NCBI GenBank assembly: GCA_963787125.1
Contig: CAWBBV010000007.1
Location: 64,001 to 128,000 of the forward strand
Source: an uncultured delta proteobacterium
GTDB taxonomy: Bacteria > Desulfobacterota > Desulfuromonadia > Geobacterales > DSM-12255
DNA: 64,000 nucleotides
Direction of reading: 5' to 3'
In this document: one piece after another, positions 1-17,673 of the stretch
How the letters are laid out: each line of letters starts with the position of its first letter
How positions within the stretch are numbered: position 1 is the first letter of the stretch
Notes under the pieces: model-generated
Databases searched by the model: none
Seen by the model: the letters and a program-made list of their open reading frames with translations, nothing else
What the model was told of the DNA's origin: nothing
Position numbers and translations under genes: made by a program

Positions 1-1087
1 GAATCGGCCCTTTCATTTTCTTACGGAGTTTGCGGACCGCCAAAAACTCAAGGATGCGCTCTTTTATTTTCTCAAGACAGTAATGATCCTCATCCAGAAT
101 CACCTGTGCCCTTTTGATATCAAGTGAGTCACGGGTAGATTTACTCCAGGGGATCTCCACCATCCAGTCAAGAAATGTTCTGAGCATGCCCGACTCTGCT
201 GAATCGGGGTGCATCTGCTCCAGTCTGCCCAACTGTTTCAGCGCTTCTTTTTCGATGGTTTTGGGCATTTTGGCAGCTTCGATAGCTTTCCTGATCTCTG
301 CAATCTCTTCCGAACGGGAGTCAGTTTCGCCAAGTTCCAGTTGTATCGCCCGAAGTTGCTCGCGCAGGTAATACTCCTTCTGGCTCTTGCCCATCTCCTC
401 TTTTGCGGCCGTCTGGATCTTGGCCTGCATCCCCAGCAGCTCATGTTCCTTTGCCAGAAATTCGTTTACCTTTGTCAGTCTTGCGACCGGATCGGTAATT
501 TCGAGAAGAGCCTGTGCTTCTTCAACCTTTAGGCCGATATTGCTGGAGACCAGATCCGCTAGGCTGCCGATATCCTGCATGTTCTCGACTATGACGATCA
601 CCTCAGGGGAGACCGGTTTCCCCAAGGCGATAATTTTATTTAGCTGATCCTTGACAGCCCTGACAAGCGCTTCAAGCTCCAGAGAATCCTCAGGCGGCGG
701 CGGCTCGGTAATCCGTTCTATATTGACCTCATAGCAGGGCTCAAGGCTTTCGAACGAGCTGATGCGTGCCTTGGCAAGGCCTTGCACCAGAATCTTTACC
801 CGCCCGTCAGGGAGCTTCAGCATCCGCATGATCATCGCCACTGTACCGACCTGATATATCGCCTCAGGCGCCGGATCCTCCTCACCAAGATCTTTCTGGG
901 TGGCAAGAAAAATCAGTCTGTCTCCGGCCAGAGCCTTGTCGACAGCGTTTATCGAAACTTCACGGCCTACAAAAAGCGGGAGGATCATGTATGGATAGAC
1001 AACTACATCCCTGACTGGTAGAAGCGGGAGTCGGTCCGGAATTTTCAGCTCATCACTCTCCTGTATCGCTTCCATTGCAATTTCCAT
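1..1087 (-). CDS. lon: ATP-dependent Lon protease, N-terminal part (runs off window start)
   Basis: Manual translation from ATG 1087 gives MEIAMEAIQESDELKIPDRLPLLPVRDVVVYPYMILPLFVGRE (LON N-domain); AGGAGAG RBS upstream; no stop seen in the segments translated. Confidence 0.93.
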   Translation of the reverse strand, partial: MEIAMEAIQESDELKIPDRLPLLPVRDVVVYPYMILPLFVGREVSINAVDKALAGDRLIFLATQKDLGEEDPAPEAIYQVGTVAMIMRMLKLPDGRVKILVQGLAKARISSFESLEPCYEVNIERITEPPPPEDSLELEALVRAVKDQLNKIIALGKPVSPEVIVIVENMQDIGSLADLVSSNIGLKVEEAQALLEITDPVARLTKVNEFLAKEHELLGMQAKIQTAAKEEMGKSQKEYYLREQLRAIQLELGETDSRSEEIAEIRKAIEAAKMPKTIEKEALKQLGRLEQMHPDSAESGMLRTFLDWMVEIPWSKSTRDSLDIKRAQVILDEDHYCLEKIKERILEFLAVRKLRKKMKGPI

Positions 1088-1142
1088 TGGTGCTCTCCTA
1101 AATAAGACAGTATTCAGTAGTCGGGTGTCAGTTGAAAGAACT

Positions 1143-1580
1143 TTACGCTGACATCTGGATGCTGACTCCTGACTCCTGATTTCTTCTTGCTATTTTTATC
1201 GATAGAACGCCCCGTTCACAGGACATTGATATCTTCTCGGGATCAAAATTGCTCGGGATCTCGATACTCCGTGAAAAACGACCAAAGTGCCGTTCAAGGC
1301 AGATATAACTCATTGCAGAGTCAATTCTTTCCTGACGCTTTACCCCTTCAAGGCGGATTGTCGACCCAATTGTTGTGATGGTAAAATCGTTTTCAGAAAA
1401 ACCGGGGAGATCAACTTCAATTACATACTGTGAGGCTGATTCGCAAATGTCCATATACGGCGAAAATTCATGCTGAACAGAGCCCTGCTCCTTCAAACGG
1501 AACATGTAATTGAACATCTCGTCCATATGTTGCCTGAACATTGACAAGCAGTCAGCGTCATCGTTTGGTTGAAATGCCAT
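1143..1580 (-). CDS. Hsp20/alpha-crystallin small heat shock protein
   Basis: P-x-x-D-I-x-E...VDLPG...ERHFGRFSRSIEIP...GVLSI motifs; start moved to MAFQP (1580), which has a GGAGGGG RBS. Confidence 0.92.
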   Translation of the reverse strand: MAFQPNDDADCLSMFRQHMDEMFNYMFRLKEQGSVQHEFSPYMDICESASQYVIEVDLPGFSENDFTITTIGSTIRLEGVKRQERIDSAMSYICLERHFGRFSRSIEIPSNFDPEKISMSCERGVLSIKIARRNQESGVSIQMSA

Positions 1581-1614
1581 AGTCCCCCTCCGGCAGATTT
1601 TCACCTAGTATACC

Positions 1615-1631
1615 AGATGATTTAATCATCT
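1615..1631. promoter_or_regulatory. Perfect palindrome AGATGATT-T-AATCATCT upstream of hsp20-lon, candidate operator
   Basis: 8-bp inverted repeat seen directly; overlaps a possible TTGACT-N17-TAAATC promoter on the minus strand. Confidence 0.35.
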
Positions 1632-1803
1632 TTGTCTTGAAAGTCAAGCCATTCCGCCGGATGTCAAAGGGCGTAGAACTGTAATTTATTGAACTTTTCA
1701 GCCCGTCAGTGTATGATTCGGAACTTTAAATGGCAACAGTCCGCAATTTTGAGCAGTTAAGCTGTTTTATTCATGTAACTAGACCCTATGAAGGAACCTA
1801 TAT

Positions 1804-3690
1804 ATGAAAAAGATCATTCCGTTTCTGCTAATAGCTGCGCTTACGTCCGGTTTTACATGGGGGAAAAGCTCTTCTGACAAGTGCGACGAAGCAAAGCAAC
1901 TGGCATTTGGGCTTACATCATTAACCGACAGGGGAAGTCGGCTCGAAGCAGAGGCTGCAATCCGCCAGCTCTGTCTTGACGGTGCAGCTGGTCTTTTTGT
2001 CAAAGGGTATGCTTTTGAAGTAGCCGGAAACCTTGAAAAAGCGCTGCTGTCATACAGGGAGGCGCTGCGGCTGGATCCGGAGTTCGCTCCGGCAAACGGC
2101 AGGGCGGGGCTGATCCTTCTTGAAAACAGGCGCGATGATGAAGCGGCTATTGAGCTGACAAAAGCGATGAAGCTCCATGCTGATGCTCTCTACAATAAGG
2201 GGCTGGCAAAAATTTTCACGGGGAGAAAGCTGTATTCACTGGCTATCTTCCACTACCAGGAGGCGATCAAGAGCTTCCCCTCCGATGCCACCCTTTTTTC
2301 AGGAATCGCCCAGGTTTATCGTGATACCGGCGAAATACTGAAAGCAGAAGAGGCTTACCGGCGGGCACTTGCTTTAAATCCCGGCAACAGGGAGTCACAT
2401 CTTGGTTTGGCAGCTATTTATACCGATTCCAGTCAGTACGATAAGGCTCTTGACCAACTCAAGAAAGCAGAAGTGTCTACACCGCTCGACAAGGATATTC
2501 ACCGTCTGATGGCAGAAATCTACCTTAAAAAGGGAGACGGTGCCAATGCCGAATCAGAGTCGATCCTTGCCGGAATTCAGCCCAAAAAGATCGAGTTGAA
2601 AACAGCTGATGGTGACCTTTTCTTTGCCGCCAGAGAATTTGAAAAGGCCGCAGCTGCATATCGAACAGAAATTGCAGCGGATCCTGAAAATAGAGATCTG
2701 CGCCGTAAACTTGGCAACACTCTTATGCTTGCCGGTCATGAAGATGACGCAATCCTGGCTTATAAAGAGGCGCTGCGACTAAAAGCCGAAGGCCAGGAGA
2801 TTCATTACAATCTTGGCCTTCTTTATGAGAATAAGGGGCTGCATGATGAAGCTGTGGTCGAGTATAAACAGGCGCTGAAATCTGGCGAGAATGTTGATGT
2901 ACGGTACCGTCTGGCTGATATTTATACCAAAAGAGGCAGCCTGCAGCAGGCGATCGAACAGTACAGAATACTGCTAAACGCAACTCCTGCAGACCAGGCG
3001 CTCCTTTTGAAGCTTGCCAAGGCTTACACTCTGGCCGGTAATCAGAAAGAAGCTATAGCTACTTACAAGGAGATGGTTCGGGTAAACTCCGACCATCTGG
3101 ACGCTCACCGCGAACTGGCGGCTCTTTATAAAAAAGGTAACATGCAGGATGAAACTGAAAATGAGTATCGTGAGATATTGCGCCATAAAAAAGATGATAT
3201 GGAGACGCGCAACGCTCTCACTTCAATTTATGTCCGGAAGAAAAGCTATGATGAACTTGTAGCCCTGCTTAAAGAGAGTGTGGCGATGGCTCCACAGGAC
3301 TCGGCCCAACTGTACAAACTTGGTCTTGTTTATGAGTTCCAGAAGGATTACGTTAATGCCGCTGCCAGCTATGAAGAGGCGATCAAGCTGAAGGAAGATA
3401 ATGCCAAGGTCCTCAATGCGCTTGGCCGGATCAACATGAAGACCGGGCATATCAAGGAGGCCAAAGAGTATCTGGAGAAAGCAAAGGCTGCTGATCCGAA
3501 TATGGAAGAGGCTACCCTGTTGCTCAATAACATCCGGGATGAGCTGGCACCGGATCCGTCGAAATACAAGAAGAGCAAAAAAGGCAAAAAGAGTAAAAAA
3601 AGCAAATCATCCAAAAAAAGTACCAAAAAGAGCAGCGCAAAAACCACTAAAAAACCGGCTGCAAAAGCCGCTTCCGGAGCGGGGCAATAA
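1804..3690 (+). CDS. Exported tetratricopeptide-repeat protein with Lys-rich C-terminal tail
   Basis: Signal-peptide-like N-terminus, many TPR units (e.g. A..Y.EAL.L.P, HYNLGLLY), KKSKKGKK tail. Confidence 0.88.
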   Translation: MKKIIPFLLIAALTSGFTWGKSSSDKCDEAKQLAFGLTSLTDRGSRLEAEAAIRQLCLDGAAGLFVKGYAFEVAGNLEKALLSYREALRLDPEFAPANGRAGLILLENRRDDEAAIELTKAMKLHADALYNKGLAKIFTGRKLYSLAIFHYQEAIKSFPSDATLFSGIAQVYRDTGEILKAEEAYRRALALNPGNRESHLGLAAIYTDSSQYDKALDQLKKAEVSTPLDKDIHRLMAEIYLKKGDGANAESESILAGIQPKKIELKTADGDLFFAAREFEKAAAAYRTEIAADPENRDLRRKLGNTLMLAGHEDDAILAYKEALRLKAEGQEIHYNLGLLYENKGLHDEAVVEYKQALKSGENVDVRYRLADIYTKRGSLQQAIEQYRILLNATPADQALLLKLAKAYTLAGNQKEAIATYKEMVRVNSDHLDAHRELAALYKKGNMQDETENEYREILRHKKDDMETRNALTSIYVRKKSYDELVALLKESVAMAPQDSAQLYKLGLVYEFQKDYVNAAASYEEAIKLKEDNAKVLNALGRINMKTGHIKEAKEYLEKAKAADPNMEEATLLLNNIRDELAPDPSKYKKSKKGKKSKKSKSSKKSTKKSSAKTTKKPAAKAASGAGQ

Positions 3691-3740
3691 CTGTACTGAA
3701 TATTTATCGCTAGCTAAGACATCCGCGCGAGGGCTGCCCA

Positions 3741-5597
3741 ATGAAAATTGAAACTCTTATGCAGCAAGCCTGTCAAAAGTTTGCCAATAGACCTGCTTTA
3801 AGGCAAAAAGTCGGCGAAGTTTGGCAAGAGACCACCTATGGGCTGCTCTGGACAGCTTCGGACCGGATTGCGGCGGGGCTGGTACGCGAAGGATTCAAGC
3901 CGGGTGAACATGCGGCCATCCTGGCGCCTTCGTCAACGCGCTGGGTTATTGTCTATCTTGGTATCCTTAAAGCCGGTGGCGTAGTGGTGCCGGTGGACAA
4001 GGAGCTTAAAAGCGCTGAATTGCGCCATGTGTTGGGTGACTGCGATGCCAGGGTGCTCTTCACCGATCAGCCCTACCTCGATACAATTCTGGAGATTGCC
4101 GGTGCCTTGCCGCTGCTCGGCAAGATCGTTACCCTGCACCCCTCCAACAGTGAAGGTGGCATTGATCCGCGAATAGCCCGGGCTGTTGAGGCATTGATCG
4201 AAGAGTGGCAAGGTTTTGTAGCCACCACCGGTATCACTCCGGAGCGAGTTTCCCGCCTGGAGACTCTTGCCAGCAGCGTTCATAGGTCGCTGCTTACCTC
4301 CGGTAAAAACAGAACCGAACAGAGCGCGCCTGACGATCTCTTTTCCCGTGCCAGGCTGCTGCGCAAAGATCTGGCCAAGCAAGGCCGGCTTTTCCCTTAT
4401 GAGGCGCTGGAATACGAGGCGCCACTCCCGCCCAACAACCGCACTACTGACGACATCGCTGTCATTCTTTACACCTCCGGCACCACCGGTCGCTCCAAAG
4501 GGGCAATGCTGAGTCACGGCAATATAGTCTCCAATATCCTCGGGACTTCGACACATTTCGGCTTGACTGATACGATCCATACCCTCTCGTTTCTGCCGAT
4601 AAATCACGTCTTTGAACAGGTCTGCGGTGTTTTTACCCCCCTGTCGCTTGGTGGTAAAGTTTCGTTTTGCGAATCACTCAAAAAGCTCGGCGAGAATCTT
4701 AAAGAGGTGCAACCAACCTTTTTCCTCGGTGTTCCGGCTGTCTATCGCATGCTTTTTGATCGGATCATGAAGAACATCGGCGCTAAAACCATCTCCCAGC
4801 TCCTTTTTTCTTTTCCCATCACCCGGCCGCTCATTACTGCCAAAATCAGGCAGACTTTCGGCTCCGGCACTATTTTTATCAGCGGTGGTGCGGCTCTCGA
4901 TCCGGCTATTGCCTCAGGCCTCACGACCCTTGGTTTTAAAATCTATCAAGGATATGGAATCACCGAGACAGCACCGGTTGTCAGCGCCGAATCTCCTGGT
5001 CGCCAATGTGTCGGCACTGTTGGTCATACGCTCCCCGGGGTGGAGATCCGTATCGACGATCCGAACGAAGAAGGGATCGGCGAAATGATTGTCAAAGGGC
5101 CGAATGTCATGCACGGCTATTACAAAAATCCTCTGGCTACCGCCGAAGTGTTGACAGATGGCTGGTATCGTACCGGTGACCTTGGTCGCATCGACAGTTC
5201 GGGCTACGTTACCATCTGTGGTCGGGTGAAAAACCTGATTGTCACTCCCAACGGCAAGAATGTTTATCCTGAAGAAGTTGAGATTGAACTGCTCAAGAGC
5301 CGCTTCATTGCCGAGGTAATGGTTTACGGTCATAAGGTGGGTGCTGCCGAGGACGTGCACGCGATTATCTACCCGAATCAGGAAGCAATGGATGACTACA
5401 TCCGCAGTAAAGACGCAGCTCCAATGACGGTTGCCGATGTTCAGGCGCTTATTCGTACAGAGGTTCATGCCGCCTGCAACAGCCTGGCCGACTACAAGCG
5501 GATCAAGAAGTTCACGATCCGCGAGGATGAATTCCCCAAGACGACAACTCGCAAGATCAAGCGGTTTGAAGTCGGGGCGACTGTTTCGATGCATTAG
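3741..5597 (+). CDS. fadD: Long-chain fatty acid-CoA ligase (AMP-binding enzyme)
   Basis: YTSGTTGRSKG, QGYGITET, GWYRTGDLG, GRVKNLI, PKTTTRKIKR motifs. Confidence 0.9.
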   Translation: MKIETLMQQACQKFANRPALRQKVGEVWQETTYGLLWTASDRIAAGLVREGFKPGEHAAILAPSSTRWVIVYLGILKAGGVVVPVDKELKSAELRHVLGDCDARVLFTDQPYLDTILEIAGALPLLGKIVTLHPSNSEGGIDPRIARAVEALIEEWQGFVATTGITPERVSRLETLASSVHRSLLTSGKNRTEQSAPDDLFSRARLLRKDLAKQGRLFPYEALEYEAPLPPNNRTTDDIAVILYTSGTTGRSKGAMLSHGNIVSNILGTSTHFGLTDTIHTLSFLPINHVFEQVCGVFTPLSLGGKVSFCESLKKLGENLKEVQPTFFLGVPAVYRMLFDRIMKNIGAKTISQLLFSFPITRPLITAKIRQTFGSGTIFISGGAALDPAIASGLTTLGFKIYQGYGITETAPVVSAESPGRQCVGTVGHTLPGVEIRIDDPNEEGIGEMIVKGPNVMHGYYKNPLATAEVLTDGWYRTGDLGRIDSSGYVTICGRVKNLIVTPNGKNVYPEEVEIELLKSRFIAEVMVYGHKVGAAEDVHAIIYPNQEAMDDYIRSKDAAPMTVADVQALIRTEVHAACNSLADYKRIKKFTIREDEFPKTTTRKIKRFEVGATVSMH

Positions 5598-5639
5598 GGT
5601 CCGGCTTTTCTGATATCTGCAGTGAGACCGCCGGGGTTT

Positions 5640-6662
5640 TTAGAAGCTCTGGCGGTCTTTTGTCTGATGACTTATCTTATAACGCTCTCCAAGTCTCTGA
5701 GCCAGTTCCGCAAACTCTTGCCGTAAAGCTTGCGGGGCATGAACTTCCACTCTGTCACCGAAACCCCGTAACCACCAGCGCAGCTGCAATGAATCGTCAA
5801 CCGTTGCCGTCACTTCGAAACTGCCATCCTCTCGTCCATCGATTGTCTGATTCGCTGCAATCGGAGCCTCTGCAAGTCTCTGTATGTCGGCAGCCCGCTC
5901 AAATCTGACTCTCAGGCAAATCTTGCCACCAAGTGGAAACTTCATCTCTCTGGCAATATAATCGTCCAGATTGAAGCCTTGCGGCAGAGTCACTGTTTTA
6001 TCCAACAAGATAACGTTTTTGATCCGGTGCAGTAGCAGCAGTACCGGGTCAGCGTGCTCATTCAGCGAAGCAACCAGATAGGTCAAGCCTTCCACGAAGA
6101 CCATCCCCAACGGATTTACTTCATGCTCCTTGTTCTTCCCGCCAACTGTCCGATATTTCGCAATAAAACGCCGCTCTTCTAAGAGAGCCGTATACACAGA
6201 CTCGGAAATCTCTTCAGGAACTTGCGGTGGAATAATTGCGAGGTTGCGTGATACCACCTTCACTTTGTCAGGCCAGCGGGAAAGACTTGAATCACTGCAC
6301 TGTTTCAGGCGCTCATCTGCACTTTTGATATACGGCTTGAGTGCCGTCAGGACCCCGTGGGGCAGCATCTGGCCGACATGTTTTTCCGCCAGTTTGAAGG
6401 TAAGCGCTGCCACAGGATCCATGTTGGGAATATCGAAAGCTGCAGCGTCCTTGCTCCAACTCCAGCCTGCCGGGCGGTTGTTGTCACGACTCAGGGGAAA
6501 TAGTCTGGAAAGCTCATTCAGGTCACGCTGAATGGTTCGAATATCAGGTGCAACGCCATCATCCGACTGTAGTCGGTCAAGAATGTCTTTAGTTGAAATG
6601 CGTCTGTGGCGAGAGAACATGCGCAGAATTAACCATTGGCGGTAGATTGTTTCCATTATCAT
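5640..6662 (-). CDS. WYL-domain transcriptional regulator (wHTH-WYL-WCX; BrxR/CapW/DriD-like)
   Basis: N-terminal wHTH (DIRTIQRDLNELS), WYL core (VNPLGMVFVEGLTYLVA...LLHRI), C-terminal WCX (LRWWLRGFGDRVEVHAPQALR). Confidence 0.93.
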   Translation of the reverse strand: MIMETIYRQWLILRMFSRHRRISTKDILDRLQSDDGVAPDIRTIQRDLNELSRLFPLSRDNNRPAGWSWSKDAAAFDIPNMDPVAALTFKLAEKHVGQMLPHGVLTALKPYIKSADERLKQCSDSSLSRWPDKVKVVSRNLAIIPPQVPEEISESVYTALLEERRFIAKYRTVGGKNKEHEVNPLGMVFVEGLTYLVASLNEHADPVLLLLHRIKNVILLDKTVTLPQGFNLDDYIAREMKFPLGGKICLRVRFERAADIQRLAEAPIAANQTIDGREDGSFEVTATVDDSLQLRWWLRGFGDRVEVHAPQALRQEFAELAQRLGERYKISHQTKDRQSF

Positions 6663-6685
6663 AACTCCATAGTGATGTTTTTAGG

Positions 6686-6717
6686 CGACGTATTATGTCG
6701 TTTTATTGGAGTATATT
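6686..6717 (+). promoter_or_regulatory. Putative WYL-regulator site CGAC-N7-GTCG plus -10 (TATATT) 11 bp downstream
   Basis: CGAC 6686-6689, GTCG 6697-6700, TATATT 6712-6717; the same geometry recurs at 19475-19506. Confidence 0.65.
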
Positions 6718-6921
6718 GAATAAAACCGGATTTGCAACGACTATCATTATCAGCAAAAAGGACCTGGTAAATGTCCAGACATGAATCCATGGGTGAACGG
6801 AAGAACTGTTTTTTTGAATGCTAATGAAAGCAAATCAAGTTAGAAAGGATCACAGAATAATGACCCTCAGCAGAGTTATCATACCGGATGTAAAAAACTA
6901 CAGCACCAAAGGGGAGAGACT

Positions 6922-7617
6922 ATGCAACTAACTGACGATGAAATGCTTCTTTTACAGCAGGCCTGCGATAAGCTGGATGACGGTGGAGATTATAGAGGGA
7001 AGAATTTCATTGATAACCTGATGATCACCGTACTTGATTTTCAGATGAATGTAAAAACCGTGAAAAAAGCACGCTATTACTTTATGGAGAAATATCCTGC
7101 CATAATAGAAAATCACGACAGTTCACTCCCTGAGCTTAAGCGCATTCTTGAAAAATATCCCGACAGCAGAGAAGACAACCTGGAGCTGGCCCATGATCTC
7201 TGGGATAACAACCACTGGTCGCGGGCTAAATTTCTCCGCAAACTGATAGAATGCCTTGAGGACAGAGGCGTACATGACCAGGCAACTCTTGTGGCATGGG
7301 CGAAGAGCGCTGACTTTGAAGAAGAGGTAAAAGGACAAATTAAAACCGAAGAACACAGCATGGGGATCGCAATCTTCAAATGGTTACAACTGCGCTGTGG
7401 CGTTGATACCGTGAAGCCGGATGTTCATATCCTCAATTTTATCCATAAAGCTGTCGGTCGAAAAGTTACCCCTGAAGTTGCTGTTGAGGTTTTGGAGAAA
7501 ATTGCCGAAAACTCAAACCGTAAACCAAATTTACTGGATGCGGCGATTTGGAAACTGGGGAGGGATACTCCGAGGAAAAAGAAGAAAAAACGGAAGAGCC
7601 CGAAGAAAAAACGGTAG
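6922..7617 (+). CDS. Hypothetical protein resembling HhH-GPD superfamily DNA glycosylases
   Basis: MGIAIFKWLQLRCGVDTVKPDVHI (degenerate HhH followed by K-P-D-x-H) and C-terminal LLDAAIW; GGGGAG RBS; polybasic tail. Confidence 0.55.
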   Translation: MQLTDDEMLLLQQACDKLDDGGDYRGKNFIDNLMITVLDFQMNVKTVKKARYYFMEKYPAIIENHDSSLPELKRILEKYPDSREDNLELAHDLWDNNHWSRAKFLRKLIECLEDRGVHDQATLVAWAKSADFEEEVKGQIKTEEHSMGIAIFKWLQLRCGVDTVKPDVHILNFIHKAVGRKVTPEVAVEVLEKIAENSNRKPNLLDAAIWKLGRDTPRKKKKKRKSPKKKR

Positions 7618-7654
7618 ACTTGCACTGAAGCAGTTCGATTTGGGCTGGGTTAAT

Positions 7655-7706
7655 AAGAGTCAGGGTGACGCGGCGTGGCAGGCCACAGCATCACCCTGAC
7701 TCTTTT
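7655..7706. terminator. Hairpin between convergent genes, likely intrinsic terminator
   Basis: AAGAGTCAGGGTGA (7655-7668) / TCACCCTGACTCTT (7691-7704) inverted repeat ending in a T run. Confidence 0.65.
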
Positions 7707-7733
7707 CATTCTATGAGCTGCGCTGTTATCGCG

Positions 7734-8519
7734 TTAAACTTCCACCCAGGACGCTGCATCACAGATTTGGAAAACCTTGCCATCCTGCACATGGCAGACA
7801 CCTGCCCAGCCTGCACTTCTTCTTGGCGACATCTCTTCACCAGCCCGGACCGGCACCTTTGCCTGGCGGAATAACGACTCAAGAAAGCTTAAAAAACCGG
7901 CCCCGAAGCCGAATGGCACAACATACACAGAACGCATGAAACCATTGCCGAAATTGCACGATTCTGTGCGCCATTTCCAGATTGTCGCCGGCCCACGGAG
8001 CCCTTTGTCCGCAAGCCACTGTTGCGCCGCAAGGAACATAGTGTCTTCAAAAGAGCCGATATAAGGGAGTCTGTCGACATTCACCTCAAGGCTGGGGAAT
8101 GTGCCTTGTTCCATAACCATGGCAGGAGTCGGAATTTCAACCTTTTCGGGCTCTTCCATGTCGACCTCTTCGGGCTCCTCCACCGGAGCAGTGGCCACTA
8201 TCGGCTCAACCAGTACGACAGTAGCCGCTGGGGCGGTAGTTCTTGTTCTGCGCTGCCGAAAGTTTTTCAGATGTTTTCCGCCGTTGACCTGATTCCCCTC
8301 TCCATCAAAAGCGACAAGCGCAAAGTCCGGATAATTGGGGGTAAAGCGGACTTTTATCCAGGCCGCCAGTGTCAGCGAACCGTCAGCAGCCTTGGTGAAG
8401 GGGTAGTCGCTAAAGCCGCCCTTATCTGCTCTGACCTTATTTCCCGCTGCATTATAAAGTTTTACGCTGAAGCGCTCTACCTGTTCAATCTGCTGTTCCA
8501 GTTCCCGGCATGTACCCAT
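7734..8519 (-). CDS. Hypothetical two-domain protein (261 aa), in frame with an upstream start-less copy of the hsdS 3' end
   Basis: GGAGG RBS 9 nt before ATG 8519 (MGTCRELEQQI); the frame stays open upstream through a low-complexity linker into HsdS C-terminal sequence. Confidence 0.7.
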   Translation of the reverse strand: MGTCRELEQQIEQVERFSVKLYNAAGNKVRADKGGFSDYPFTKAADGSLTLAAWIKVRFTPNYPDFALVAFDGEGNQVNGGKHLKNFRQRRTRTTAPAATVVLVEPIVATAPVEEPEEVDMEEPEKVEIPTPAMVMEQGTFPSLEVNVDRLPYIGSFEDTMFLAAQQWLADKGLRGPATIWKWRTESCNFGNGFMRSVYVVPFGFGAGFLSFLESLFRQAKVPVRAGEEMSPRRSAGWAGVCHVQDGKVFQICDAASWVEV

Positions 8520-8675
8520 GATTGTTTTCCTCCCTGGTTGTACTGCTGCAGGTGCAGCAGCTGTCGATTCCGGCGCTGAAGTTTTCTGCTCCGCCGGTTG
8601 CAGCTGATCCGGCTCAGCCTGCTTTGGCAAGCTACCCTTCTTCCCCGAAGATATCTTAATTGTCCGACCTGATTT

Positions 8676-8864
8676 GATCCGCTCCAGCAGCACCGCCGCC
8701 GGTTCGTCGCTGGGGTTCTGGGGCACCAATTCACCGCGAAAAGCCTTGGCGAGGATGGATTGGGTGAGCTTGTCTACGTGGGTCTTGGCGGTCCGGTAGC
8801 GGGCTTCCAGTTGGTCGGCCAGGGTGAAGAAGGATTCGACCCGGCGGACGATTTCTTGTTGTTC
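8676..8864. repeat. Direct repeat copy A: duplicate of the hsdS 3' conserved region (189 bp)
   Basis: Aligns without gaps to 10694-10882; 13 mismatches by manual count. Confidence 0.95.
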
Positions 8865-8883
8865 GGGGAGAAAGTATAATTGA

Positions 8884-9447
8884 TCAACCCGGAAACACTT
8901 CTTTGAACAACCGCTTGTAATCGGCCTTGAATTCCTTGGGGCGGTCGTTCTGGTAGATCAAATACCCGGCAATCTCCCGCACCTTGGCCATTTCGATATG
9001 ACCACATTCCAGCATCAACCTCAGCAAATCTAGCGTCTTGAACGTTTTGACATCAAAATCATTTGCCAGCGCCAGCATATCGGTATCGTCAGTGACAACC
9101 GGCAATCCAATAACGTAGGCATGGGCAAGCACAGTGACATCCACCCGCGACACCGTGGGGTATGCAGTTCTCTTGTGGTCAAACATGAAGTCGAACGCCT
9201 GCTCGATTTCATTTCTCTCTTGCTTGGATAGTTGCACACGGTGTGAGCGGTTTTCTGTGTATTCCGGGTCATTAACCCATGGAAACTTGTTTCGCAGGCG
9301 GGGACTTTTGTTGTACTCGTCCTGTAGCTCCTTGATTACATACAGGCAGTAGGGCGGTGCGCCGAACTCCGTTTTGAGCAGGGGGCGGATGCTTTGCGCC
9401 AGGCGGAAATAGGTGTTGGTATCGACAAGGATCTTACTTTGCGCCAC
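8884..9447 (-). CDS. PIN-domain protein (putative RNase toxin) paired with ImmA/IrrE protein
   Basis: KILVDTN N-terminal PIN motif, E, D and VVTDD acidic residues; GTG start overlaps the upstream gene. Confidence 0.75.
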   Translation of the reverse strand: MAQSKILVDTNTYFRLAQSIRPLLKTEFGAPPYCLYVIKELQDEYNKSPRLRNKFPWVNDPEYTENRSHRVQLSKQERNEIEQAFDFMFDHKRTAYPTVSRVDVTVLAHAYVIGLPVVTDDTDMLALANDFDVKTFKTLDLLRLMLECGHIEMAKVREIAGYLIYQNDRPKEFKADYKRLFKEVFPG

Positions 9448-10579
9448 TGCAAAGCTCCTCATATACGTTCTGGGCGTCTATGAATGGTATATTGAGGATG
9501 CTTTGGACAAAACTTGCGGGTTTATGACCCGTGTTCAGGTAATTCCTGAGAATATCGAAGAATGGGCTTTTAAAGGTTTCTTTGGCGCAGGCAATATAGC
9601 GGGATGATGGCGGCTCTTTGGTAGCAAAGAGAATTTCGCTTACCGGCTTGAACATTTTATTGAAATTTATAGTCGCCTTATGGATTTCTTTGTCCGAGTC
9701 GAGATCGATCCTTTCCGTCCCCTTGAACTCGGCGTACTTGTTGATTTCGTAGTAAACCGTTAGCGGCGACACAACAAGCTTGGCGGCGGTCTCCTTGATG
9801 CGGTTGATCTGCTGGCCGATGTTGCTCGTGTTCCGTAACGCCTCGTACTCCCTGGCTGCCAGCTCCTGGGGAATCAGCAGCGCCCCGGCAAACGCCTCGG
9901 CAAAATCCTCCCCATCGTCGCCCTGCAGTTGCGGAGCGAGAACGTGGCCCAATTCATGGGACATCCAGAACTTGAAATCATGCAGACGGCAATCGAGGTT
10001 AAGGTAAATCCAGGTTGACAGCGACTCGGGCAAATGGATATGGAGGGCGTTTTCATGCTTGTCCTTGTGCGCCCAGAGCACCGGTACAAGAACAGCATGG
10101 AGTTTGCCAAAGAAATCGATCAATTTCTCAAAGTGGATTTCGCCACCTTCAAGCACACCGATCTCTTCCCGTACCCGCCGGGCGGCCTTGTGTACGTACT
10201 CGTAGTCGCTCACCGGTTTGCGGAGCGTTGCCGGCTGGACCTGGTCGTCGAAGGGAAGAAATGGAACAAGCGCTTCAAGAATGCGCCCCATATCCTTTGC
10301 CTGTTCCACATATTCCGGGGTTATCTTGTGCGCCCCCTTTTTGCGGAAAGCGACAACCGGCTCGTTCGGTTCCGGGAGCTTGATGACCAGATCCGAGAAA
10401 GACAAGGCGAGCAGACGCGCCAGCTTCAGGAGCTTGTCCGGGCGAGGGTACTTATCCTGTTTGAACCATTGAGAGACGGTTTCGCGGGAAACGTCCAGGG
10501 CTTTGGCAATGGAGGATTGGTTGAGGCCGAGAGCTTCAGCCTGCTGAGACAACTTTTCAATGTTGAGTGTGTTTGTCAT
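9434..10579 (-). CDS. XRE HTH + ImmA/IrrE (DUF955/COG2856) metallopeptidase
   Basis: LNQSSIAKALDVSRETVSQW HTH; FWMSHELGHVL (HExxH) and EDFAEAFAGALLIP motifs. Confidence 0.9.
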   Translation of the reverse strand: MTNTLNIEKLSQQAEALGLNQSSIAKALDVSRETVSQWFKQDKYPRPDKLLKLARLLALSFSDLVIKLPEPNEPVVAFRKKGAHKITPEYVEQAKDMGRILEALVPFLPFDDQVQPATLRKPVSDYEYVHKAARRVREEIGVLEGGEIHFEKLIDFFGKLHAVLVPVLWAHKDKHENALHIHLPESLSTWIYLNLDCRLHDFKFWMSHELGHVLAPQLQGDDGEDFAEAFAGALLIPQELAAREYEALRNTSNIGQQINRIKETAAKLVVSPLTVYYEINKYAEFKGTERIDLDSDKEIHKATINFNKMFKPVSEILFATKEPPSSRYIACAKETFKSPFFDILRNYLNTGHKPASFVQSILNIPFIDAQNVYEELCSGAK

Positions 10580-10627
10580 GGGTAACCTGTATACAACATT
10601 GTCAACTTTTGTCAACTACAGTATACG
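10580..10627 (-). promoter_or_regulatory. Sigma70-like promoter/operator of the ImmA-PIN pair
   Basis: Minus strand has tandem TTGACA-aaag-TTGACA, then TATACA, flanked by two GTATAC palindromes, just before ATG 10579 (possibly near-leaderless). Confidence 0.5.
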
Positions 10628-10639
10628 TTTTTTACGTTT

Positions 10640-11974
10640 TTAGTGCCGGACTTTTTTGGTCTTTGCTGGTGTGGTCTTGGCCCGCTCTGCCCGGATACGC
10701 TCCAGCAGCACCGCCGCCGGTTCATCGCTGGGGTCCTGGGGCACCAATTCGCCACGGAAGGCCTTGGCGAGGATGGATTGGGTCAGCTTGTCTACGTGGG
10801 TCTTGGCCGTCCGGTAGCGGGCTTCCAGCTGATCGGCCAGGGTGAAGAAGGATTCGACGCGACGGACGATTTCTTGTTGTTCCTCTGGAGAGACAATCGG
10901 GAATTCGAGCGATCCAACGACTTGCTGATTCAGATTCGTCATCGTACTGCCGACGGAACCCTCTTCAAGGAAGGCACAAGTATAGGGGCTTCGCAGCAGT
11001 AAGCAGAGAAAGTCGGGAACAACATTTTTGCTGGTTGCCCGTAGGATAAGCGACCCGGTCCCACACATAAGACCAGGAGCGCGAACCACTGCAGCTCGTC
11101 CCATTTCACCCCTTCGGCCGAGAACAATATCTCCCGGTCGCAGTACATATCGAGTAAGTTCCTTCATTTTGGTTTCAGAGACGCTTTGATCTGCATTGGG
11201 AAATATTTGACCTTCCCGAATATGCATGGGGTTGATTAAAGGGACTCCGTTCGATACGTAGTCATGCTTGTGAAGTGCACTGCCGAAAGGTCCTGTTTGA
11301 ACGGAAACATCTTGCTTTGAAAGCGTGGACCATTCCCATTCTTCAACCTTGTTTTCCTCCCTCCAATCCGCCGTCAGCCGCCCGGAGCAGGCAGCGGCCA
11401 GCACCGCCTGGCGGAAGCGCTTGAGGATGACCGGAATCTTCGCCAGCCGCTGCTGGCTGGTGTCCACCTTGGCGAGCACCTCTTCCAGTTTGGCGACGAT
11501 GCGGCGTTGTTCGTTGAGGGGGGGGAGCGGGATTGGATGCCTTCTAACAATTTCCTGACTGATGTTAGGTTGTGCACCCCCTTGTCCAAGCTCAATAAAT
11601 GTCTGTCTTTCGGAGAATAAATAGAAAAAAGCATATTTTTCTGCAACGAGATTTTCGTTCGGGATTAGATTGGCGCAGGCTTGATTTGTCGCAGCAGGGA
11701 AAGTCATGATGCCAAGCTTGCCAATCGTAGCACCGTAGAGCGCCATGGAGATTGTCCCGGCAGGCAGCATTTTTGCTGATGAACTTTTGAGGCCGCTTTC
11801 GGTGATTTCTTCGTCCGTCTTTAGAATCAGGCCATCGGGCAAATCACCACTTTTTACCCATGGGATGCCTTTCCCGAAATACTCGGGTTTGCTACGCGAG
11901 GGGGTTCCCCCGCTGCACCAACTTCCAATTTCAGCGAGTGCAGTATTAACCCACCCCTGCAGTAATTCACTCAT
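10640..11974 (-). CDS. hsdS: Type I restriction-modification specificity subunit
   Basis: Two target recognition domains (GGTPSR...; QTGPFGS...) each followed by a conserved region (PLPPLNEQRRIV; PEEQQEIVRRV...LAKAFRGEL). Confidence 0.96.
   Translation of the reverse strand: MSELLQGWVNTALAEIGSWCSGGTPSRSKPEYFGKGIPWVKSGDLPDGLILKTDEEITESGLKSSSAKMLPAGTISMALYGATIGKLGIMTFPAATNQACANLIPNENLVAEKYAFFYLFSERQTFIELGQGGAQPNISQEIVRRHPIPLPPLNEQRRIVAKLEEVLAKVDTSQQRLAKIPVILKRFRQAVLAAACSGRLTADWREENKVEEWEWSTLSKQDVSVQTGPFGSALHKHDYVSNGVPLINPMHIREGQIFPNADQSVSETKMKELTRYVLRPGDIVLGRRGEMGRAAVVRAPGLMCGTGSLILRATSKNVVPDFLCLLLRSPYTCAFLEEGSVGSTMTNLNQQVVGSLEFPIVSPEEQQEIVRRVESFFTLADQLEARYRTAKTHVDKLTQSILAKAFRGELVPQDPSDEPAAVLLERIRAERAKTTPAKTKKVRH
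10694..10882. repeat. Direct repeat copy B (3' conserved region of hsdS)
   Basis: Matches 8676-8864 at an offset of 2018 bp. Confidence 0.95.
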
Positions 11975-12075: not shown

Positions 12076-12378
12076 CTATTCTGATTCGCTCAGTTGGACC
12101 GAATCATCCAACAATTGCCTGCCATGCCGCACGGTCAGAATGTGAATGTCATCCGTCACCTTATAGATAACTCGATAGTTGCCATAAATCAGCTCACGAA
12201 TATCTGAGCGTTTCAGTTCCGGGACAACCCGGCAGCTCAGGGGTTGCTCCGGCAATCCACCCACCGTTTCGAACAGCTTTTTTACCCATTTTTCAGCGGC
12301 AGAAGGCTTGTCTCTGGCAATATAGCGGGCAATATCCCGCACGCGTTCCAGAGCCAAGGGCGACCAGACGACCTTCAT
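12076..12378 (-). CDS. RelE/ParE family toxin
   Basis: MKVVWSPLA...IARYIARDKPSAA...RELIYGNYRVIY...ILTVRHGRQ. Confidence 0.92.
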   Translation of the reverse strand: MKVVWSPLALERVRDIARYIARDKPSAAEKWVKKLFETVGGLPEQPLSCRVVPELKRSDIRELIYGNYRVIYKVTDDIHILTVRHGRQLLDDSVQLSESE

Positions 12379-12656
12379 TGCGCAATACCCGCGAGAATGT
12401 GCGTCAGAGCCTCATCATGGCTTAGTCCATTGCCTGACGCCAATTGACGTTCCGCCGCATGAACGTCCTGCAGCAATTCAAGCTGCTCCAATAGTTCCTC
12501 ATATTTCGCTACATCAAGCAGCACCGCAGCACTGCGGCCATGATTGGTGATGACAAGTGGCCGGTGAGTAGTCTGTACCTGTTTTATGAAACCGGTTACA
12601 TTGCCGCGAAACGTTGACAAGGGCTGAATATCGTTAACCAGCGAAAGTTGCGCCAT
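12375..12656 (-). CDS. Phd/YefM family antitoxin
   Basis: DIQPLSTFR...RPLVITNHGRSAAVLLDV..YE; ATGA overlap with the toxin gene. Confidence 0.92.
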   Translation of the reverse strand: MAQLSLVNDIQPLSTFRGNVTGFIKQVQTTHRPLVITNHGRSAAVLLDVAKYEELLEQLELLQDVHAAERQLASGNGLSHDEALTHILAGIAQ

Positions 12657-12721: not shown

Positions 12722-14176
12722 TCAAACCTCCGCCCCCTCTTCCCGCTCAATCAGCCGGATGATCTCCCGCAGATCATCCACCACCGCCTCCAGCTCGGTG
12801 ATCGCCTCGGCGGCCAGATCCTGGGGTTCGGGGAGTTCGTTGCCGTCCTCAAGCGATTCGTCCTTCAACCAGGTGATATCCAGCTTGTAGTCGCGCCCCT
12901 TGATATCGGCCAGGGTGAAGGGGCGGAAACGGCCCGTTTCGCCGCCATCAGTGCGGGGTGAGCGGCCATTGGGGTCTTTGCCGTAGGCAGCGTCAAACTC
13001 GGCAAAGTGCTGGGCTGAAAGGGGCCGGTCCTTCTTGGTGATGCCGGGAACGTTGGAACGGGCGTCGAAAATCCAGACGTCTTTAGTCGGCAGACCTTTC
13101 TGGAAGAAGATGACATTGGCCTTGACCCCCTGGCTGTAGGGGGTGAAGGTGCCGCGGGGGAGGCGCAGCACCGTGTGCAGGTTGCAGTCCTGCATGAGGA
13201 TTTCGAAGACTTCGCCGGCCTTCCCTTCGAAGAGGCAGTTGTCCGGCAGGACCATGGCGGCCCGGCCGCCGGGCTTCAGGGTGTTGACCACGTGCTGGAC
13301 AAAGTTGAGCTGTTTGTTGCTGGTCTCGATGGTGAAGTCTTCCCGGTCCGGCGCCTGATTGGCTCCCTTGGTGCCGAAGGGGGGATTGGTGAGAATGACG
13401 TCAAACTTGTCGGCACCGGGGGGCTCATAAATGGTGTCACCCAGCCGAATCTGCGGCTCCACGTTGTGCAAGTAGAGGTTCATCAGCGCCAGCCGCCGCG
13501 GCCGGGCCACCAGGTCCTGGCCGTAGTAAGTAGAGGTGCGAATCCGCTTGGCATCGGCCCGGTCAAAGGCCCCTTTGGTCTTCTCAAAGAGCCATTCATA
13601 AGCGCAGACCAGAAAACCGCCGGTACCGCAGGCCGGGTCGCAGATTTTAAAGTCGGCCTTGCCCCGCGGATCGGGCTGCATCACCCGGACGATGGACTGA
13701 ATGAGCACGCGAGGAGTGAAATACTGCCCCGCCCCTTTCTTCCCTTCACTGGCGGCCTTCTCCAGCAGCCCCTCGAAAGCGGCCCCCTTCACATCCACAT
13801 CCAGACCGGTCCACTCTTCATCATCAATCAGGCCGATGATCTTTTTCAGGCTGACCGGGCTATTGAACTGGTTCTTGGACTGGGCAAAGATATCCCCCAG
13901 CATCCCCTGCTGACTGCTCAGGGCACGGAGCACTTCGGAGAAATGGTACAGCACCGCCGTGCCGGACTTGTTCCGCAGAGCGGCCCAGCTGCAGTCAGTG
14001 ACGATCTTCTCGTGCTTCTCGTTGACCCAGGAGATGGCGTGCAGCTCAATCCCTTTTTCATCGGACATCTTGAGAAACAGCAGGTAGGTGAGCTGCTCAA
14101 TATAATCGCCATAATCGATGCCGTCATGGCGCATCTGGTGGCAGAAGCCCCAGAGTTTGTTGACAATGTCTGACAT
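12722..14176 (-). CDS. hsdM: Type I restriction-modification N6-adenine methyltransferase
   Basis: GQYFTPR, DPACGTGGFL, NPPF motifs; start placed at MSDIVNKLW (14176). Confidence 0.96.
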   Translation of the reverse strand: MSDIVNKLWGFCHQMRHDGIDYGDYIEQLTYLLFLKMSDEKGIELHAISWVNEKHEKIVTDCSWAALRNKSGTAVLYHFSEVLRALSSQQGMLGDIFAQSKNQFNSPVSLKKIIGLIDDEEWTGLDVDVKGAAFEGLLEKAASEGKKGAGQYFTPRVLIQSIVRVMQPDPRGKADFKICDPACGTGGFLVCAYEWLFEKTKGAFDRADAKRIRTSTYYGQDLVARPRRLALMNLYLHNVEPQIRLGDTIYEPPGADKFDVILTNPPFGTKGANQAPDREDFTIETSNKQLNFVQHVVNTLKPGGRAAMVLPDNCLFEGKAGEVFEILMQDCNLHTVLRLPRGTFTPYSQGVKANVIFFQKGLPTKDVWIFDARSNVPGITKKDRPLSAQHFAEFDAAYGKDPNGRSPRTDGGETGRFRPFTLADIKGRDYKLDITWLKDESLEDGNELPEPQDLAAEAITELEAVVDDLREIIRLIEREEGAEV

Positions 14177-14189
14177 TGGGTTTCCTGTG

Positions 14190-14609
14190 TTATGAGTTGA
14201 ATTGAGCCAGAAACTCTTCTGCGGTGCAGGTTGTGATTGTCGCCGCACGAAAATCCTTTCGATTACGGGTAACAATGACAGGCAGGCTATTTTCTAGAGC
14301 GGTATAGTACTGAATTGCATCCTCAAAATCGCTGAAATTAGAATCAAGTGCCTTGGCAATGACAGTGTCGTCAACAGGCAGTATAGGCACAAGCTTGCGC
14401 AGATTTTTTAATGCTTCAACCGCCTTATGTGAGCCTATGGATTTACGCAGTACGTAATGGAGGTTTGCATAGGTCAGCGAAGAGGCACAAGCCTCAACCT
14501 TTCCTTTGTCAATCGCGGAAAAAAGGGCAGCAGCTTGGAAGTAAAACGGTTCGCGTCGACAGAAAAGATCAAGAAAAATATTGGTGTCGATGAATATGCG
14601 CTGTTTCAT
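14190..14609 (-). CDS. PIN-domain (VapC-like) toxin
   Basis: IFIDTNIFLD...DFEDAIQYYTA...IVTRNRKDF. Confidence 0.92.
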   Translation of the reverse strand: MKQRIFIDTNIFLDLFCRREPFYFQAAALFSAIDKGKVEACASSLTYANLHYVLRKSIGSHKAVEALKNLRKLVPILPVDDTVIAKALDSNFSDFEDAIQYYTALENSLPVIVTRNRKDFRAATITTCTAEEFLAQFNS

Positions 14610-14851
14610 CGGTATTTTTTCTCAAGATAGTCAGTGTACTCTTCCCTGAAATTATCAGCAGCATCAGGAGGCAGGATACCGGAAAGACTTGCCACTATCG
14701 GCGTGATTTCTTCCGTTGAACTATCTTTGCGCACAACCAGTTTCAGATAGTTTTCCACCATATTGGAAAGGCTTCGATGCTGCTGGCGCGCATATTCCTT
14801 GGCCTGTTCGATCACATCGCTTTCAATGCTCAAGGTCAGTTTGGTCTGCAT
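14606..14851 (-). CDS. RHH-type antitoxin (DUF6364-like)
   Basis: TKLTLSIE..VIEQAKEYA....SLSNMVENYL; ATGA overlap with the PIN gene. Confidence 0.85.
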   Translation of the reverse strand: MQTKLTLSIESDVIEQAKEYARQQHRSLSNMVENYLKLVVRKDSSTEEITPIVASLSGILPPDAADNFREEYTDYLEKKYR

Positions 14852-14862
14852 GGCACACCTCC

Positions 14863-14898
14863 TACGTATAAAATATTACATGCTATACGTATTGTCAA
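14863..14898 (-). promoter_or_regulatory. Autoregulated TA promoter with palindromic operator
   Basis: TTGACA (14898-14893), 17 bp, TATTTT; operator arms TACGTATA 14863-14870 / TATACGTA 14884-14891; AGGAGG RBS. Confidence 0.7.
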
Positions 14899-14904
14899 CT
14901 TGCT

Positions 14905-17607: not shown

Positions 17608-17673
17608 CTTACCCCCGGCTGCGCCGTTAATAAACTTTTACCTGCATTCAATTAGCATGCTTGGGGGGTTTAT

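Follow-up and report, generated by a model that had tools for sequence, protein, structure and literature searches.

Introduction

The Dag glycosylases, a kind of defence enzyme described in 2025, are the fitting precedent for the gene analysed here. The available text of the Dag study describes two unannotated defence proteins of V. parahaemolyticus that have helix-hairpin-helix (HhH) superfamily folds and reports protection against a 7-deazaguanine phage for 17 out of another 22 integron clusters (bioRxiv 10.1101/2025.10.29.685425). The same text describes the Dags as arising more than once inside the HhH superfamily (polyphyletic) and as escaping detection by sequence, gives the share of homologues with a defence or mobile marker no more than 20 kb away as about 45% for the Dags and 3.1% for housekeeping glycosylases, and lists K118, D184 and W188 of Dag1 as essential and D132 as partly dispensable (bioRxiv 10.1101/2025.10.29.685425). 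A described relative of another kind is MagIII (PDB 1pu6), a 3-methyladenine (3mA) DNA glycosylase of the HhH-GPD superfamily that has no iron-sulphur (Fe-S) cluster.

The gene lies in a stretch of 64,000 nucleotides (here denoted the window) from an uncultured delta proteobacterium (GenBank assembly GCA_963787125.1, contig CAWBBV010000007.1, positions 64,001 to 128,000 of the forward strand). Its product, denoted P0001, had been read from the letters alone (the original prediction) as an HhH-GPD-like glycosylase under the putative promoter of a WYL gene, and as a candidate anti-phage effector with Brig1 as its precedent. We find that P0001 very probably belongs to the HhH-GPD superfamily by fold and that it is probably competent as a glycosylase. 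By analogy with the Dags, we tentatively read it as a stand-alone, modification-dependent anti-phage DNA glycosylase of their kind, a possible assignment rather than a firm one.

Predicted fold of P0001

Searches with P0001 gave no significant match in Pfam, NCBIfam, PADLOC, PHROGs or the PDB sequences; the best PHROGs row, phrog_29694, reached an E-value of only 0.0046. Its structure was predicted with AlphaFold2 from an alignment of 36 sequences. The model (mean predicted local distance difference test score 95.1, predicted template modelling score 0.88) is all-alpha, with 13 helices, and shows the HhH-GPD layout of two lobes, a six-helix barrel that bears the HhH and a bundle formed by the N- and C-termini. 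The top structural match was MagIII of H. pylori. Foldseek gave the same ranking, with weak E-values (7.8e-3 and up) and template modelling scores of 0.5-0.6. The viral fold library BFVD returned only 3mA glycosylases of giant viruses, again with weak E-values, and no UDG-family chain was among the matches listed in the fold searches. The HhH-GPD fold had been claimed from motifs, with structure prediction and fold searches named beforehand as the check, and the claim passed it.

Conserved residues and comparison with known glycosylases

Two family alignments were used, a close one of 36 sequences and a wider one of 48 sequences reaching down to 26% identity. The motifs named in the original prediction are present in the 231-amino-acid product: VKPDVHI at residues 164-170, LDAAIW at 205-210 and a polybasic tail, RKKKKKRKSPKKKR, at 218-231. 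A degenerate HhH occupies residues ~132-158, with the stretch HSMG-IAIFKWLQLRCG preceding VKPD and the hairpin reading H-S-[IM]-G where L-P-G-[VI]-G is usual. The Gly/Pro loop with its Asp runs G160...K165-P166-D167, and the second motif is L205-D206-A-A-I-W210. Invariant in the close alignment are F40, W94, R101, W126, F132, G148, R158, G160, D167, D206, I209 and W210; P166 is found in 26 of the 36 sequences, with Ala in the remaining 10. In the wider alignment D167 is kept in 44/48 members, D206 in 47/48 and W210 in 42/48, five of the six exceptions to the last being aromatic, and R101 and W126 are kept in all 48. K165, two residues ahead of D167, is kept in 35/36 and 41/48 sequences; we know of no catalytic counterpart of this position.

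Alignments to known enzymes place these residues consistently. A HMMER match to the Ogg2-type chain 9o00_A is weak (E 0.8) and not significant alone, and in it the hairpin (kGLG), pDvHv on IDRHI and LDaaIW on MDLRIW are all in register. The family profile matched 27 Nth-family sequences over the full length, also weakly (E 0.025, probability 2%) and not significantly alone, with the hairpin in register, D167 on the Asp of VDTHV and VLDFQM on the ILSAQ helix. These two weak alignments are consistent with one another and also with the fold match. No match was obtained when the family profile was compared with a single sequence, the Nth of the genome itself. The claims of a degenerate HhH ahead of VKPD and of a conserved Asp behind it were thus borne out, by a Gly (G148) that both weak alignments set on the hairpin Gly and by the retention of D167.

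Position 150, where Nth and Ogg carry the Schiff-base Lys, is Ala, Val or Thr in the family, with Lys in 1 of the 36 close relatives. P0001 has three scattered Cys (15, 111 and 159), of which only C15 is widely kept in relatives, and no C-terminal Cys cluster of the Fe-S type was found in the protein or in the family alignment, in agreement with what had first been claimed. From the missing Lys and the missing cluster we predict that P0001 is a monofunctional glycosylase, without a lyase step. DNA is the likely substrate, because basic C-terminal tails occur in 9/36 close relatives and an Lsr2 DNA-binding domain (3e-08) is present in one relative. The same fold could also house a protein that is non-catalytic or does not act on DNA, such as a binder of lesions or abasic sites like S. 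pombe Mag2, or a hydrolase of free modified nucleosides or nucleotides like the queuosine-salvage DUF2419. With the aspartates conserved as they are and DNA the likely substrate, we hold this distinctly improbable.

As far as the Dag preprint describes its proteins, P0001 resembles them in an HhH-superfamily fold hidden from sequence searches and in being a single accessory gene near defence or mobile genes. Close to the C-terminus, both place a Trp four residues after an Asp (D184 and the stacking W188 in Dag1, D206/W210 in P0001), and the less critical D132 of Dag1 has a parallel in D167, which is less conserved in the P0001 family than D206; both likenesses come from residue numbers in the preprint's text, not from an alignment. 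The Dags come from Vibrionaceae integrons, whereas the P0001 family belongs mainly to environmental metagenome-assembled genomes (MAGs) of many phyla.

Other known glycosylases fit less well. MagIII shares 14% identity with P0001, with no detectable sequence match, and is a repair enzyme, whereas the P0001 family is rare and accessory. Membership in Nth (PDB 2abk, 1orp) was rejected on the absence of the GxK Lys and of the C-terminal Cys-x6-Cys-x2-Cys-x5-Cys [4Fe-4S] cluster; the genome encodes both Nth and MutY separately from P0001. For Ogg2/AGOG (PDB 9o00, 3n0u, 3fhf; PF22175, PF09171), the Lys that follows the hairpin Gly (GMKEA) is replaced by Ala, Val or Thr in the P0001 family and none of the 48 members matched PF22175; the D-x3-W motif is common to both. 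Brig1, named as precedent in the original prediction, proved the wrong one because it is a UDG-family enzyme, as the Dag preprint's text has it (bioRxiv 10.1101/2025.10.29.685425), and membership was rejected on its UDG alpha/beta fold against the all-alpha model of P0001. What Brig1 and Brig3 share with the reading proposed here is the concept, as given in the available parts of their reports, of excising a phage-specific modified base to leave abasic sites (PMC11078745, PMC13160076).

A wide but thinly scattered family

A word-indexed search yielded 125 homologues at E<=0.001 out of 786 candidates, mostly of ~210 amino acids and named 'hypothetical' bar one stray label. An exhaustive search of 1.84 billion cluster representatives (50% identity clusters) gave 357 matches at E<=0.001, 142 of them at <=1e-10 and 31 at <=1e-30. 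Because of these homologues and clusters, and of the confident AlphaFold2 model, the observation goes beyond chance. A pattern scan over 185,579 species, each represented by a single genome, found 34 loci, distributed over Bacteroidales, beta-proteobacteria, Desulfobacterales, Patescibacteria, Planctomycetota, Verrucomicrobiia, Anaerolineae, Acidobacteriota and many Actinomycetota/Acidimicrobiia MAGs, and a metagenome scan added 87 relatives, of which 80 were kept. The family is real, old, and wide but thinly scattered, and we read it as a rare branch that has spread horizontally, living mostly in MAGs from sediment, soil and other environments across many phyla, and no current annotation library names it. 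Its 48 aligned members share no recurring Pfam family, and the single AGOG match among them is at chance level (E 0.055). When 33 longer relatives were scanned for fused domains, we detected Lsr2 (1 protein) and TPR (2 proteins), together with weak matches to DinB_2, cREC_REC, DUF1015 and DUF2087; no nuclease or lyase fusion partner was found among them.

Accessory status and neighbourhoods of homologues

The P0001 gene was present in 1 of 41 genomes, its own, and in none of 40 relatives (7 of the same genus, 15 of the same family, 18 of the same order). Its own genome encodes canonical Nth, MutY and Tag; AAG-type and AlkC/D-type enzymes were not found there. Restriction to one genome that already holds Nth, MutY and Tag indicates that P0001 is an addition to the normal repair set.

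These data bear on the main rival reading, suggested by the match to MagIII, in which P0001 would be a MagIII- or Ogg-like accessory enzyme of base-excision repair that removes alkylated or oxidised purines, acting in genome maintenance or in self-protection against a genotoxin. We consider this unlikely, though it deserves serious weight: the genome already has its repair glycosylases, the gene falls outside the repair set of the lineage, and the neighbourhoods of homologues, described below, are poor in repair genes and enriched in defence and mobile ones.

To survey neighbourhoods, the two nearest open reading frames (ORFs) on each side of the 34 homologue loci (numbered with the prefix L), called crudely as the longest non-overlapping ORFs, were collected (121 proteins; thresholds Pfam 1e-5, PADLOC 1e-8). 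As control served 30 Nth loci, taken from as many genomes of the phylum to which the window belongs (115 proteins, Pfam scan only). By strict count, a defence-system or mobile-element neighbour was present at 8/34 homologue loci and 0/30 Nth loci (Fisher p 0.005), a comparison to be read with its control from other taxa and Pfam-only scan, its crude ORFs and its disregard of relatedness (L013/L015, L028/L032). The neighbours in question are methyltransferase-HNH (L001), a DDE transposase (L005), an OLD/Gabija-like ATPase-TOPRIM protein with ArdC (L008), HepT with NERD (L010), a Schlafen-type helicase (L011), IstB (L018), a TIR/ThsB-like protein (L027) and Mrr with an ADP-ribosylglycohydrolase (L033). 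A broader list that admits toxin-antitoxin domains brings the count to 10/34 (adding L023 and L030), and an ankyrin candidate seen by PADLOC only (L021) raises it to 11/34; the control count by the broad list is 1/30 (a HEPN domain in L193), with a Fisher p of 0.003. DNA repair neighbours occurred at 1/34 homologue loci versus ~4-5/30 Nth loci, where they were Ogg-HhH, ExoVII/HHH, LigD_N, PriA and AP_endonuc_2. No partner recurs across the 34 loci and the 80 metagenomic ones, and no restriction-modification (R-M) gene recurs beside P0001 homologues. Neighbours with no Pfam match were more numerous around homologues (69/121 vs 27/115), a difference that is not evidence, as longest-ORF calling yields spurious ORFs in high-GC actinobacterial loci. 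The neighbour counts fit an accessory, often defence-linked gene, short of proof.

In two of these loci we noted further detail. In L021, from a candidate-division WS1 MAG, ankyrin proteins of the PDC-M72A model stand on both sides of the homologue (848-3847), and in L033, from a Verrucomicrobiia MAG, a WYL gene, a 760-amino-acid ADP-ribosylglycohydrolase protein, Mrr and the homologue are co-directional (3137-8711).

A number of observations weigh against a Dag-like role in defence. The top structural match, MagIII, is a repair enzyme. Dag1, in the preprint's text, is bifunctional with an essential K118, whereas the P0001 family has no conserved Lys at the Nth/Ogg position. PDB sequence searches with P0001 and with family profiles returned only chance-level rows (best E 0.8); PF00730, the HhH-GPD family whose cut-off the genome's own Nth and MutY do pass, gave no match to P0001 at E<=1 and matched 0/48 members, and PF22175 (Ogg-HhH) likewise matched none, even at E<=1. 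The neighbourhood check proposed with the original prediction came out divided, in that the enrichment held (8-11/34 against 0-1/30 in the Nth control) while 23/34 loci had ordinary neighbours and neither a defence nor a mobile one. Several actinobacterial loci share synteny with ordinary genes, for example IclR-AhpC in L013 and L015, which suggests stable vertical inheritance there, and the homologue in L002 has ruvC on one side and a radA-like gene on the other. Searches of 72,556 plasmids and 50,697 phage records found no family member, so the mobile-element signal reported for the Dags is lacking here; a viral contig collection gave three weak partial matches.

If P0001 does act as a defence glycosylase, its HhH hairpin and basic tail would hold duplex DNA, and a non-canonical, probably purine-type base would be flipped into an aromatic pocket (W94, W126, W210, F40, F132). 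The N-glycosidic bond would be hydrolysed by catalysis through D167 and/or D206, and no lyase step would follow. Abasic sites accumulating in heavily modified invading DNA would then block replication or be cut by the host's apurinic/apyrimidinic endonucleases, and unmodified host DNA would be spared. P0001 would in this way deal with phages that evade the adjacent type I R-M system through modified bases. The divergent WYL factor may set P0001 expression, which is the weakest step of the proposal.

An anti-phage P0001 would bring a further sequence family into the HhH defence glycosylases, a class opened only recently, and one from environmental bacteria of many phyla and not from Vibrio integrons, and with an active site that has no Dag1-type Lys. 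A phage DNA modification that is common in sediments and soils might come to light through its substrate, and the enzyme might become a reagent for mapping the modified base. As a repair enzyme, P0001 would be an ordinary addition to a well-known superfamily.

The transcription unit and its island

The start codon of the P0001 gene is backed by homologues, which share an M-x-L-T/S beginning. Downstream of the stop codon we noticed an intrinsic-terminator-like hairpin (-34.8 kcal/mol, z -6.06; equally stable shuffles 0/200), which a simple terminator scan overlooked, its loop limit being 8 nt. With its own ribosome-binding site and terminator, the gene constitutes a self-contained monocistronic unit (Table 1). 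A promoter pattern scan of the region between it and the WYL gene gave a single sigma-70-like match on the minus strand (6737..6710), for the WYL gene, and no plus-strand match for the glycosylase gene; promoter-like sites number 3 versus 2.2 +/- 1.6 expected, not above chance.

Table 1. Features of the P0001 locus in the window, and the related locus L163 of genome G006 (coordinates of its own contig)
Feature	Position	Strand	Remarks
HTH-WYL-WCX transcription factor P0002	5640..6662	-	340 aa; Pfam WCX 7.3e-17, WYL 1.1e-11; PADLOC WYL 5.5e-27
Divergent intergenic region, WYL gene / glycosylase gene	6663..6921	.	259 bp
Candidate WYL operator	6685..6701		6-5-6 imperfect palindrome GCGACG-TATTA-TGTCGT (+ strand), 23-39 bp upstream of WYL start
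Shine-Dalgarno-like GGGGAG	6911..6916	+	5 nt ahead of ATG at 6922; sequence inspection
HhH-GPD-superfamily gene (by predicted fold), product P0001	6922..7617	+	231 aa, open without internal stops (translation)
Intrinsic-terminator-like hairpin	7655..7708	+	14-bp outer stem, then UUUU; starts 38 nt past stop codon
Unknown protein	7734-8729	-	331 aa; no Pfam, PADLOC or PHROG match
Unknown protein	8884-9462	-	192 aa; no Pfam, PADLOC or PHROG match
HTH_3 + Peptidase_M78 protein, RmrA-like	9434-10615	-	Pfam; PADLOC RmrA 7.5e-13
HsdS, type I R-M	10640-11974	-	Pfam
ParE/Phd pair	12076-12656	-	Pfam
HsdM, type I R-M	12722-14275	-	Pfam
PIN/DUF6364 pair	14190-14851	-	Pfam
HsdR, type I R-M	14905-17607	-	Pfam
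Ankyrin protein	17674-19044		PADLOC candidate PDC-M72A model
Locus L163 (G006:C136)	727-6900		MqsR/MqsA, WYL homologue 1669-2670, PF21790 protein 2698-3372, DnaE-like gene, DnaB-like frame

Within 12 kb of the glycosylase gene lie the type I R-M system, an RmrA-like gene, two toxin-antitoxin pairs and the WYL gene, and three minus-strand genes (7734..10615) are convergent with it. The placement originally described, divergent from the WYL gene and inside a defence island, is confirmed by the intergenic gap and by the R-M and RmrA-like genes downstream. RmrA is presumably part of the RosmerTA system. The 192-amino-acid ORF overlaps the end of the RmrA-like gene by 29 nt and could be the toxin partner of the RmrA-like protein. 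The toxin-antitoxin pairs ParE/Phd and PIN/DUF6364 interrupt hsdS-hsdM-hsdR, and PIN/DUF6364 is missing from the matching segment of G006, a genome of the same genus.

The G006 copy of the type I R-M system is 95% (HsdR) and 98% (HsdM) identical to that of the window at the protein level (segments compared: window 12773-17616, L161 (G006:C140) 431-5179). As yardsticks of divergence, a radical-SAM gene is 84% identical between the same two genomes and a flanking AMP-binding gene, which has orthologues in 4/22 relatives, is 70-77% identical in other relatives. To judge from these identities, a recent move of the R-M module is possible. Apart from the AMP-binding gene, genomes G010 and G003 show no match to the window over 16-20 kb, and island borders were not located by synteny. 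A WYL paralogue stands directly beside hsdR in the G006 copy; the P0001 gene was not found there.

One could see P0001 as an auxiliary part of the island, a helper of the RmrA-like module or of the type I R-M system, or WYL-dependent cargo, as its gene adjoins the island genes and WYL homologues adjoin variable cargo in relatives (HsdR, SNF2, SIR2, DUF2779, toxin-antitoxin pairs, one PF21790). The gene nevertheless has its own ribosome-binding site and terminator, no neighbour is conserved across the homologue loci and no R-M gene recurs among them, and the same R-M system exists in G006 without it. We rate such an auxiliary role as very improbable.

The WYL gene and candidate co-regulation

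The product of the divergent gene, P0002, has the HTH-WYL-WCX architecture of the BrxR/CapW-type WYL module, and among HhH-type genes its adjacency to a glycosylase recurs once, with PF21790 in G006. No BrxR or CapW chain matched P0002 at E<=0.01. C. crescentus DriD is a single-stranded DNA (ssDNA)-sensing activator of the damage response. Its chains 7tzv and 8tp8 (PMC10853764) are the closest solved relatives of P0002, at E about 1e-10. In the repair reading of P0001 set out above, induction may come from DNA damage through this DriD-like factor; the likeness cannot separate repair from defence, because defence-linked BrxR repressors are, in the part of the report available, likewise released by ssDNA, during restricted infection (PMC13622015).

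A candidate operator, an imperfect palindrome, lies close to the WYL start and ~220 bp from the glycosylase start. It recalls the 11-bp repeats with a 5-bp spacer that BrxR binds according to the accessible part of its description (PMC9122601). Similar GCGWCA-N5-TGWCGC palindromes precede the WYL homologues of L160, L162 and L163, and L166-L168 have half-sites; within the window the pattern (<=2 mismatches) occurs 12 times versus 7.8 +/- 2.9 expected, not above chance. A second copy with two mismatches (19491-19507) falls at the start of the ORF 19051-19497(-) that heads the ankyrin-hsdR strand, and if the palindromes are real, at a window count of chance level, the WYL factor could bracket the whole island. 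Because the palindrome is at chance level and so far from the glycosylase start, the claim that P0001 stands under the WYL promoter lost its support: the two genes are divergent units, the sole operator-like palindrome lies by the WYL start, and their adjacency is not conserved.

No WYL or WCX domain was found among the 121 nearest neighbours of the 34 homologue loci. A phmmer search with P0002 over 3,797 ORFs of at least 60 amino acids from 114 homologue loci (750 kb) gave one match, L033:3137-4225, two genes from the glycosylase homologue in the Mrr island. WYL adjacency is no trait of the P0001 family. Judged by titles and the beginnings of abstracts, a targeted literature search returned no description of a WYL-linked glycosylase.

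P0002 homologues in relatives of the window's genome are 38-65% identical, sporadic, multi-copy and often at contig ends. Their neighbours vary and include HsdR, an SNF2 helicase, SIR2, DUF2779, AAA ATPases, MqsRA, HicB, and HU with an ADP-ribosylglycohydrolase. In G006 the gene immediately downstream of a WYL homologue (41% identity to P0002) encodes a PF21790 protein (2.7e-21), named 'OGG' and putatively OGG-like. PF21790 is, like the P0001 family, a rare HhH-type family (1/151 genomes of the order, 0/14 control genomes), and the two do not match in sequence (family profile against the G006 protein E 2.2; P0001 against Pfam none). The WYL group of P0002 thus accompanies defence cargo and twice an HhH glycosylase-like gene, which makes co-regulation a lead.

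Carried further, the lead would make the WYL and glycosylase genes an inducible cassette, in which the WYL factor would sense ssDNA arising from damage or from the action of the adjacent type I R-M system on invading DNA and would raise a monofunctional HhH glycosylase, an induced second line of defence against restriction escapees; we think this improbable, and no less improbable that the glycosylase of such a cassette removes a modified base other than the known Dag or Brig substrates. Were the cassette real, the PF21790 pairing in the sister genome would turn 'WYL plus interchangeable glycosylase' into a recurring design. With WYL genes paired to two HhH families inside a single genus, the silencing of toxic DNA-targeting effectors until infection could be put to the test here.

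The G006 pairing lies in L163, where the divergent DnaE-like gene is only 34% identical to the DnaE of the window's genome; the DnaE-like and DnaB-like frames suggest that this WYL-PF21790 copy may sit on a mobile replicon. ADP-ribosylglycohydrolase genes also occur near the WYL homologues of L166 and L168.

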